Below, one piece after another: positions 23,337 to 26,192 of a DNA stretch of 64,000 bases (its first letter is position 1; the number at the start of each line of letters is the position of its first letter). Origin of the DNA: a virus (taxonomy: Duplodnaviria > Heunggongvirae > Uroviricota > Caudoviricetes); the IMG/VR virus record IMGVR_UViG_2627853701_000009; one strand, given 5' to 3'. A model generated the notes under the pieces. The model was not told where the DNA came from, did not search any database, and saw only the letters and a program-made list of their open reading frames with translations. The position numbers were made by a program, and so were the translations under genes.

Positions 23337-26192
23337 TCAGCTAATCGTGATGCCTGCAGTGGCTTTCTTCATCACCACAACCAGCAAATCGCTGATACTT
23401 GCTGTGGGATACCAGTTATTTACCAGCCATGCTGACACCGAAAACTCCAGTGTCATGTGACCGTGACCGGCAGGCATATCAATAACACCACTGTAAATCA
23501 GCGTATTATCCAGCGCGGTACGGTTATAAATTTCAGCACCGTTTTTCCGCACTATCAGACGGCATGAGGAGTAAATATCAGTATGCTCTTTCTCATGTTT
23601 AGCGCCGCTGAATGCCACCGCCGGAATAACAATCTGCCGGTCAAACGGCTGATCGTCATAAACCCTGACGGTAATGGTTCCTGATGGCCACCGCTCCGGT
23701 GCACGGGAGTCCCGGGGGAAAGCTTTGCCCACTGTTTTAACGAGATCGCCTTCAATCTGGTTCGCGGACAATTTTCCCAGAACCCGACAGTTCTCGTTAA
23801 TCGTGACGTTGTTGAGCGTCCCGGAGTTCGCATTCACGTTACCGCTGATATCGGCATTTTTCGCCGTCAGCCGCCCGTCCGGTGTCAGGGAAAATGCCGG
23901 AGGATTACCGCCGCTGGTAATGGTGGGAGCCGTCAGATATTTCAGGAACACTTCATTCATAAATATCTGATCGCCCTGACCAACAAACATCGGCTTTGTG
24001 TTGCCATTCGCAGGATTAATCATCGCAATCCTGTCTGCCGCCAGCAGCACCTGACTCTGCATTCCTGCTGGCGTATTCTCAATACCGGCACCGATACCCG
24101 CAATATAAAGGCGTCCGTCCTGCATCTGCTGCAGTTTCACGGCCCACATGCTGTTCAGGTTATTATTTGTATCAACCTGAACTTTCTGTATCTGCTGGAT
24201 TGCCGCACTCTGATTTTCCAGTTTTTTATTGACGGTCTGCGTGATTTCATTGCTGACATTCGTAATGGACGTCCTGATTTCAGCCAGGTCCGGCGCAAGC
24301 TGACCGTTATCAATCTGCGTCCACAGCTCCTGGGCCAGATGTGTTTTCCCGATTTCTCCTTTGAAAAAATCCAGGTAACCTTCCGCATCATCGCTCGCCC
24401 GACCGACAGCCTCCACGAATGCCGATTTGCCAACAGTATTCACACTGCGGATATAAAAATAATAATCATGGCCCGGTTTGATATTGATACTGGCAGCTAT
24501 CCAGTACAGCGCCGAGCCAAGATAGCGGGCTGCGGTTTCAACCTGCCTGATATCCGCAATCCGCTTTTCCGAGAACCAGAACTCAAACTGTACCGTCGGG
24601 TCATAAACGGCAAGATGCGGCGTGGCGGTTATCTGAAAATAGCCCGGCGTCAGCTCAATCCGCGACGGTGCTGCCGGTGCGGCAATCCGGAAGGTGGTGG
24701 TGGCAGGTTCACCCTGCTGGCCATAGCTGTTTATCGCCCGCACCGTCAGGGTGTATTCCCCGAGCGGCAGGCCGCTGAAACGGTGCTCCGTGTCTGCGGT
24801 GATGGCGGTGGTCACCAGTCTGGCATCCGTTCCCTTACCACTGGTCAGGCGCAGACTGAAGCGCACGCCCTTCACCACCCGCGGCGTGTCCCATTTAGCC
24901 TGCGCCAGATACTGGCCGTCAGCTGCACTCACCTCCACCGTCAGGTGCTGTACTGCCGGTGGGATGACGCTGTTCAGGGAACCTGACTGCGGCTCAAAGC
25001 GGGCACCGTTATCCACGATGGCTTCTTTTTCCGGTACGTGCTGCACCGCCGTGATGGCAAAGGTGCCGTCCGTGTTTTCCCGGACGGAGACACAGCGGAA
25101 CAGGCGACGGCGCAGTGACGGCAGGGAGAGTCCCCAGACACCGTATGTCTCCACACCATCAGGCAGGGTACTGACCTGTATCCGGTCCGGCGCGGGGTGT
25201 GCGGTGATGTCCACACTCACCGGCTTACCGCTGCCGTTAATCAGGTTCACCGTGGCGGCACCGGTCTCCGGCAGTGTCACAATGGCATACAGCGCCCACT
25301 TGTCCACATCCGCCGCCCCCAGGCGTTTTCCCATTCCGTAGCGCGGGTGGGTCAGCATGTCCCACAGGCACCAGGCAGGGTTGTTGCTGTATGCCGGTTT
25401 CAGGCTGCCGTCCCAGATGCCGCTGTACGTGCGTTTTTCCGGGTCATAGTTTGACGGCACCTGGATGATGCGACCGCGGATATGGTAGTTCACCGTCATC
25501 TGCTGACCGCCAAACTGCTCCGCATCCACCTGCAGCCCCACAATGGCCGTGTTCGGGTAGCACTGTTTCACATCGATGATTTCGGTGTATGACGACCACA
25601 GCGTTCTGTTCTGCAGCTGGTCCGTGGTGCTGTCCGCCGTCTCCCTGACCATCCGGATGTTAAAGGGCCGGGGCGGCAGATTATCCAGAATCACCGACGC
25701 CAGGAACTGCGAGGTGGTCTTGCCGTTAATGGTGACATCCTTTTCCGTCACCCAGTTACCGTTACGCTGCAACTGAATCAGCAGTCGGACAGAAGAGTGA
25801 TTACGGTCGCCCTTTGAGGTGGTCTCCAACAGTGACTGCACCCCGAAGGTGACCCGCAGGCGGTCAATGTTCGCGGACGTAATGGTGCGCGTCACCGGCT
25901 TTGCCTTCGTCACTTCCACGCCCAGTGCGGTTTCAGCTCCGGAGGACTCAAAGCCTTCCGGTGGTGTCTGCTCCTGCTCCCCGGCACGCCAGACCGCAGT
26001 CACACCGTGTATCACGGGATTACCGTCCGTGTCCGTCAGCGGGGTTTTGTTCACCAGAATACTCTGCAGCCCCTTCACCGGACCTTCAATCGGCCCTTCA
26101 CCAATGGCGTCAATCACGCTCATCATCTGCGTGGACTTAAGATTGTCCTTTGCCTCTACCGGCGTGTGCCCCTTGCCGCCCCCTTTACCCAC
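23337..26192 (-). CDS. J: Tail tip protein J with internal in-frame deletion (951 aa versus 1158 aa in copy A)
   Basis: Identical flanks; sequence jumps from ...[10 protein letters not shown] directly to [21 protein letters not shown]. Confidence 0.8.

Follow-up and report, generated by a model that had tools for sequence, protein, structure and literature searches.

The J gene of prophage copy B (J_B), which lies in one of two lambda-like tail operons found on the minus strand of the 64,000-nucleotide stretch of DNA analysed here (hereafter the window), is very probably a recent inactivating lesion of an ordinary lambda-type J in a defective Sp9-like prophage of Escherichia coli O157:H7, the organism to which the window belongs. 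The J gene of the other operon (J_A, prophage copy A) is full-length and serves as the reference for the comparisons below (Table 1).

Table 1. Positions of the J genes, their neighbors and associated features in the window.
Feature	Position	Strand	Remarks
J_B, host-specificity/tail-tip attachment gene J, prophage copy B	23337..26192	minus	951 aa, GTG start, residues 305-510 deleted
Deletion joint in J_B	25278..25283	minus	codon I304 (25281-25283) directly against codon V305 (25278-25280)
Separate one-codon length difference in J_B, approximate	24810..24842	minus	divergent allele segment of first Ig/FNIII domain
J_A, full-length J, prophage copy A	3185..6661	minus	1158 aa, collinear with lambda gpJ
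J_A block without J_B counterpart (codons 305-510)	5132..5749	minus	DNA alignment
K_B, tail-tip assembly gene K (C40 peptidase)	27008..27751	minus	stop at codon 20 (27692-27694), S to stop compared to K_A
K_A	7476-8219		intact
I_B, tail assembly protein	26433..27011	minus	open
L_B, minor tail protein L	27762..28460	minus	open
lom and side-tail-fibre genes downstream of J_B	20943..23269	minus	all open; lom 22670-23269; stf 21214-22518; fibre C-terminal gene 20943-21212
Type III effector cargo, Sp9-like prophage	15219..19916		nleF 15219-15788, minus; nleH1-2 15854-16774, minus; integrase remnant; nleA 18591-19916, plus

Size and position of the deletion

Outside one large gap, J_A and J_B are 93% identical. 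A GTG start was chosen for both open reading frames, which matches the MGKG... N-terminus of the lambda protein, and neither frame contains a stop except its terminal one. In the DNA alignment, the gap is a single 618-bp block (columns 913-1530), equal to 206 codons, that is absent from J_B, and the joint falls between window positions 25281 and 25280 with an ambiguity of one G. A preliminary description of this DNA had reported an in-frame deletion of 207 codons in J_B; the block, its place and the preserved reading frame, which is evident from both the alignment and the sole, terminal stop, are as described there, but the 207th codon is a separate indel, i.e., an independent 6-nt versus 9-nt gap in columns 1969-1999, ~150 codons downstream of the joint. 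The J_B frame coincides with a coding sequence annotated by PGAP in strain 2017C-4109, and its product has the same sequence as a database protein (P0001) and as RefSeq WP_000514948.1, the latter as it stands in the annotation of strain TR01.

At two synonymous sites that are 3 nt apart (25137 and 25140; J_B nt 1056 and 1053), J_B of the window is unlike every listed deletion-bearing genome. The best bit score of the deletion-bearing genomes against it is 5264, ~2 mismatches below a perfect match. One of the two window-specific bases agrees with J_A, and the differences suggest gene conversion between J paralogues over a short patch.

Domains lost and retained

J_A aligns 1:1 with lambda gpJ (PDB 8IYK) through residue ~605; in the overall comparison (PDB 8IYK and 8XCG), the two proteins are collinear with E = 0, residues 1-835 are aligned 1:1 and the same set of Pfam domains is found. 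Pfam PF13550 (Phage-tail_3) matches J_A at residues 330-498 (E = 1.1e-38) but has no match in J_B, whereas five other gpJ Pfam domains are found in both. With J_A residues 215-610 as the query for solved homologues, four solved proteins were compared, namely lambda gpJ, the hub/fibre protein BHP2 of the F2-pyocin, 9l9p_S and 23gd_D ("J-like tail tip protein gp24"). All four lack any large gap over residues 305-510, and their best-conserved motifs fall within this very stretch. As judged from these sequence comparisons, the long form of J is ancestral: copy B lost sequence, and copy A did not gain any. The earlier view of J_B as the derived, deleted form is therefore retained, as lambda gpJ is collinear with copy A and the short form is rare.

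In the published structures of the lambda tail, gpJ starts with HDII-ins1, in which HDII-ins2/FNIII-A (72-215) is embedded, followed by HDII; HDIV carries HDIII in place of its beta3-beta4 loop and is followed by a linker, two FNIII domains, a helical shaft, a fibre and a receptor-binding domain (PMC10721106, PMC11101478). An OB/beta-sandwich (483-569) is inserted between beta24 (477-482) and beta25 (570-578) (PMC10721106). HDIV is the hub core; with HDI of gpL, it builds a pseudo-hexameric ring, which serves as the bridge to the gpM hexamer and extends the tube (PMC11101478). "Minimal" siphophage hubs keep HDII, HDIII and HDIV, and only decorations such as the OB domain are absent from them (PMC13243795).

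The boundaries given in the text of the lambda tail papers are those of beta4, beta13, beta24, beta25, FNIII-A and the 483-569 insertion. With residues 305-510, J_B has lost the whole of PF13550, strand beta24 of HDIV and the initial 28 residues of the OB insertion. Based on the published domain order, the earlier HDIV strands and HDIII were probably removed as well, and the hub domain that contains residue 305, the left boundary, is likewise placed by that order and not by coordinates. Because the right breakpoint (510/511) lies within a folded domain, the OB domain, the deletion cuts through domains and is not a clean excision.

The domains that J_B still has in common with lambda gpJ are FNIII-A, both Ig/FNIII domains, the tail-tip fibre and the C-terminal receptor-binding domains. 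PF24801, which represents the HDII insertion with FNIII-A, is retained at J_B residues 86-207 (E = 1.8e-40), and PF24421, PF24489, PF09327 and PF12421 (two Ig/FNIII, tail-tip fibre and C-terminal receptor-binding Ig) are also present; with both PF09327 and PF12421 detected, the receptor-binding C-terminus has survived, as had been proposed. The conserved hub core, i.e., the HDIII/HDIV tail-tube fold with PF13550, is missing from J_B, whereas none of the four solved homologues lacks the segment. The removed block had also been called central: a block is indeed lost, but it lies in the N-terminal half of the protein (305-510 of 1158) and comprises conserved hub core, including all of Phage-tail_3, and is no dispensable central spacer. 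A single-sequence AlphaFold2 prediction of J_A residues 215-610, made with no alignment, reached a mean pLDDT of 34, too low to be of use; a solved structure at ~87% identity exists.

Age and mechanism of the deletion

P0011, a 1157-aa protein of O157:H7 strain Balcarce_24.2, possesses the 206 codons that J_B lacks and matches J_B at 951 of the 951 retained residues. At the DNA level, P0011 and J_B of the window differ at 8 positions, all of which are synonymous and clustered in patches, and in the 1944 nt that follow the joint, J_B of TR01 has 0 mismatches to P0011. Because this full-length twin is near-identical, the deletion is recent relative to the divergence of the alleles. The prophage that carries P0011 is not that of J_B: it is found beside btsSR/yehV, the site corresponding to copy A, and has an intact K gene adjoining J. 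An undeleted ancestor in J_B's own prophage was sought and not found, the closest full-length alleles all being located in the btsSR/yehV-site prophage of other strains.

The parental breakpoints read GCCATT/GCGCAG...CGTGAG/GTGACA, with a single G common to both at the joint, so the microhomology that the preliminary description had raised for examination amounts to 1 nt. In a search for repeats at the breakpoints, the longest common word was 5 nt, and none was flush with the joint. Slipped-strand and homologous recombination are therefore ruled out as the origin. The deletion is an illegitimate event that was neither repeat-mediated nor homologous. The in-frame outcome, for which the chance is 1 in 3, needs no special explanation.

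Distribution and further decay of the deleted allele

When 5426 complete E. coli genomes were searched with a 160-nt probe centred on the J_B joint, a full match was found in 64, while the two halves of the probe were matched separately in 1878. The nleF-nleH1-2-nleA block is found in 373 genomes, so that the joint is present in 64 of 373, or about 1 in 6, Sp9-type elements. All named carriers, including TW14359, EC4115, SS17, JEONG-1266 and ATCC 43889, are O157:H7 or serotype-unlabelled strains; the joint-bearing genomes come from several continents, different laboratories and different sequencing platforms, and each of them contains 8-13 J-like places. The J_B frame is open in 63 of the 64. 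Among the best 120 database proteins, all of which are at least 98% identical, 104 are 1157 aa in length, 10 are 951 aa, 3 are 941 aa, and 1 each is 1165, 1156 and 1080 aa. The joint is absent from phage records, as the best 40 of the 1740 matching records all have the extra 618 nt; for instance, phage BP-4795 is 100% identical on both flanks, yet carries the 618 nt.

The 941-aa alleles (P0019 and P0106; e.g., strain 272, NZ_CP018239.1) share the 206-codon deletion and the prophage with J_B and have, on their own, lost a further 30 bp (10 codons) in frame, at a site flanked by a 3-nt GTG repeat. In strain FSIS11705876 (locus L011), a +1 G frameshift is found at J_B nt 1862. The post-deletion point changes that can be scored on a common background comprise ~5 nonsynonymous versus 3-4 synonymous ones, which are few events from unequal samples, with P = 0.15-0.31 under neutrality and P = 0.02-0.04 at omega = 0.1. 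They are compatible with neutrality, awkward for strong constraint and too few to count against moderate constraint. Two deletions that are both in frame would arise by chance about 1 time in 9, and, together with the 63 of 64 open frames, they could be a sign of some retention.

No specific description of the J_B deletion was found in a search of the literature. The allele is already in RefSeq and represents neither a new kind of system nor a new kind of short tail protein. It marks a single O157:H7 sublineage, to which TW14359, EC4115 and SS17 belong, and beyond such bookkeeping the deletion is of little importance. It also calls for caution in annotation: in RefSeq, the 951-aa product goes under the name "host specificity protein J", with the missing hub core unflagged.

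The prophage of copy B and its tail operon

Copy B preserves the M-L-K-I-J-lom-stf order of the lambdoid tail operon, of which L-K-I-J-lom-stf is the order in common with lambda. The nonsense codon in K_B, which is a second lesion of the tail-tip module and independent of that in J_B, is flagged as an "internal stop" by PGAP in both 2017C-4109 and TR01. In copy A, 20 kb from J_B, the K, I and J genes are all intact. The TR01 locus matches window positions 14148-45359 at 99.86% identity, and PGAP annotation of the TR01 and 2017C-4109 loci describes a lambdoid prophage with nleA, nleH1-2, nleF, espM1 and an ompW remnant. A lambdoid late operon is thus combined with effector cargo beside an ompW remnant, as in Sp9-type elements, and the prophage is defective in that it carries both the K_B nonsense at codon 20 and the deletion of the J hub core.

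The copy B prophage is the counterpart of Sp9 of strain Sakai. Sakai Sp9 occupies the same ompW-side site, has the same cargo (nleA, nleH1-2, nleF, ISEc8 and espM1), is collinear with copy B from J to ISEc8 and is also tail-tip-defective. Unlike copy B, it has a full-length J (ECs_1806), a truncated L, no K or I and a different, HK97-like head module; these morphogenetic modules have been swapped between O157 lineages. The tail-tip lesions of copy B and Sakai Sp9 differ and therefore arose independently. At the Sakai Sp9 locus (NC_002695.2 1794147-1798248), only the J-to-cargo part is orthologous to copy B of the window.

Between nleH1-2 and nleA (window ~16800-17950) lie a C-terminal tail-fibre fragment and a frameshifted integrase remnant, and downstream of stf (window 20256-20830) lies a frameshifted DUF1076 (NleG-like) gene, according to the annotation of the matching TR01 and 2017C-4109 loci. 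The fibre, integrase and DUF1076 pieces are what is left of an older prophage that is nested within the cargo.

Functional interpretation

J is needed at the first step of lambda tail assembly. The copy B prophage, a lambdoid element at ompW with an effector cargo, belongs to a sublineage of E. coli O157:H7, and a single illegitimate, in-frame 618-bp deletion with 1-nt microhomology took residues 305-510 from its J. The part lost is the most conserved of the protein, consisting in lambda gpJ of the tail-tube-like HDIV, the inserted HDIII and the start of the OB insertion. The ring of HDIV and gpL docks the tip onto gpM, and loss of HDIV would leave no hub ring; a J_B without HDIV would be unable to nucleate or close the tail tip, though its FNIII, fibre and receptor-binding domains are still encoded. 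J_B is accordingly predicted to have lost its function. Because the J_B deletion occurs together with the K_B nonsense, the prophage is probably unable to build its own tail tip. The preliminary description had left the choice between a defective tip and a naturally short variant; the defective reading is favored because the joint is absent from the best 40 of 1740 matching phage records, a breakpoint falls in a fold, K_B is dead and the allele decays further.

Most O157 lambdoid prophages carry lesions, and some of them are still excised, packaged and transferred; it has been suggested that the functions missing in defective O157 prophages are supplied by co-resident prophages (PMC2669165). 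If copy B is ever packaged, it would have to rely on tails borrowed from other lambdoid prophages of the cell, for example from copy A, whose J is intact, or on recombinational repair by them. Horizontal spread of nleA, nleH1-2 and nleF by this element would then depend on such tails of other prophages or on such repair.

It is very improbable that J_B is instead a naturally short but functional J, whose tip either does without the HDIII/HDIV core or has this role supplied by another protein. The kept reading frame, the still detectable N-terminal FNIII-A and C-terminal domains, the stability of the allele in 64 genomes from several continents and the purely synonymous nature of the 8 DNA differences from P0011 are what such a protein might show. 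However, the synonymous differences occur in clusters of the kind that gene conversion with functional paralogues would leave, and because of this clustering they are silent on selection acting on J_B. The joint is found in none of the best 40 of 1740 phage records; the deleted segment is kept in all solved homologues and even in minimal hubs; the breakpoints ignore domain borders, the right one lying 28 residues into the OB domain; the adjoining K gene is dead; and the allele is restricted to one prophage, with the named carriers being O157:H7 or serotype-unlabelled.

A truncated J that is kept for a secondary role, either as a poison subunit or as a free receptor-binding fibre released at lysis, is very improbable. 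As a poison subunit, it would enter into mixed trimers with full-length J proteins from co-resident prophages, to which it is 93-100% identical, resulting in fewer infectious long-tailed phage. The C-terminal two-thirds, with the receptor-binding domain and the FNIII, helical and fibre regions through which trimers form, are intact, the genomes offer 8-13 J-like places each, and the two successive deletions are in frame and are not frameshifts. Nevertheless, one genome is already frameshifted, the pattern of point changes fits neutrality, and chance could readily give an in-frame outcome. That an expressed truncated J is retained as a prophage-encoded poison subunit, which interferes with or modulates the tail assembly of co-resident lambdoid phages by way of mixed trimers held together by its intact fibre region, is a speculation to which we give hardly any weight; if true, J_B would affect the release of infectious particles, including those that carry toxins or effectors.

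Integrity of the assembly and other features of the window

The deletion in J_B is almost certainly not an assembly or sequencing artefact. The assembly of the window is questionable elsewhere, as another of its joints, at 14147/14148, is shared with no complete genome; nevertheless, the identical J_B joint occurs in 64 independently assembled complete genomes, which refutes the artefact, and its breakpoints have no repeat that might cause a collapse. The case in which the short J is ancestral and common and copy A carries an insertion has practically no chance of being correct and is refuted by the lambda gpJ alignment, the Pfam domain and the solved homologues, as the segment is collinear in lambda gpJ and distant homologues and coincides with a curated Pfam domain, and as the short form is limited to 64 of 5426 genomes and 13 of the 120 best proteins, compared to 104 of these at 1157 aa.

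In other O157 strains, the prophage to which the copy A tail module belongs lies beside btsSR/yehV. In the window, this module ends abruptly within gene Z at 14147/14148, where it is joined to the interior of ISEc8 of the Sp9 cargo, 142 bp from the ISEc8 end, and 6 nt (GGATCC, a BamHI site) are common to both parents. This joint is found in 0 of the 5426 complete genomes, and either a large, strain-specific rearrangement between prophages or a chimera of assembly or cloning may account for it.

Tail assembly protein T is annotated by PGAP as "incomplete, missing C-terminus" in both TR01 prophages (locus L003, 13578-13880; locus L006, 13950-14252) and in strains 611 and 2010C-3347, which may reflect either a defect or an alternative arrangement of G/T and H. 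In the window, the two TR01 genes correspond to the T genes of copies A and B. Strain 2017C-4109, unlike TR01, has a full T and a shorter H.
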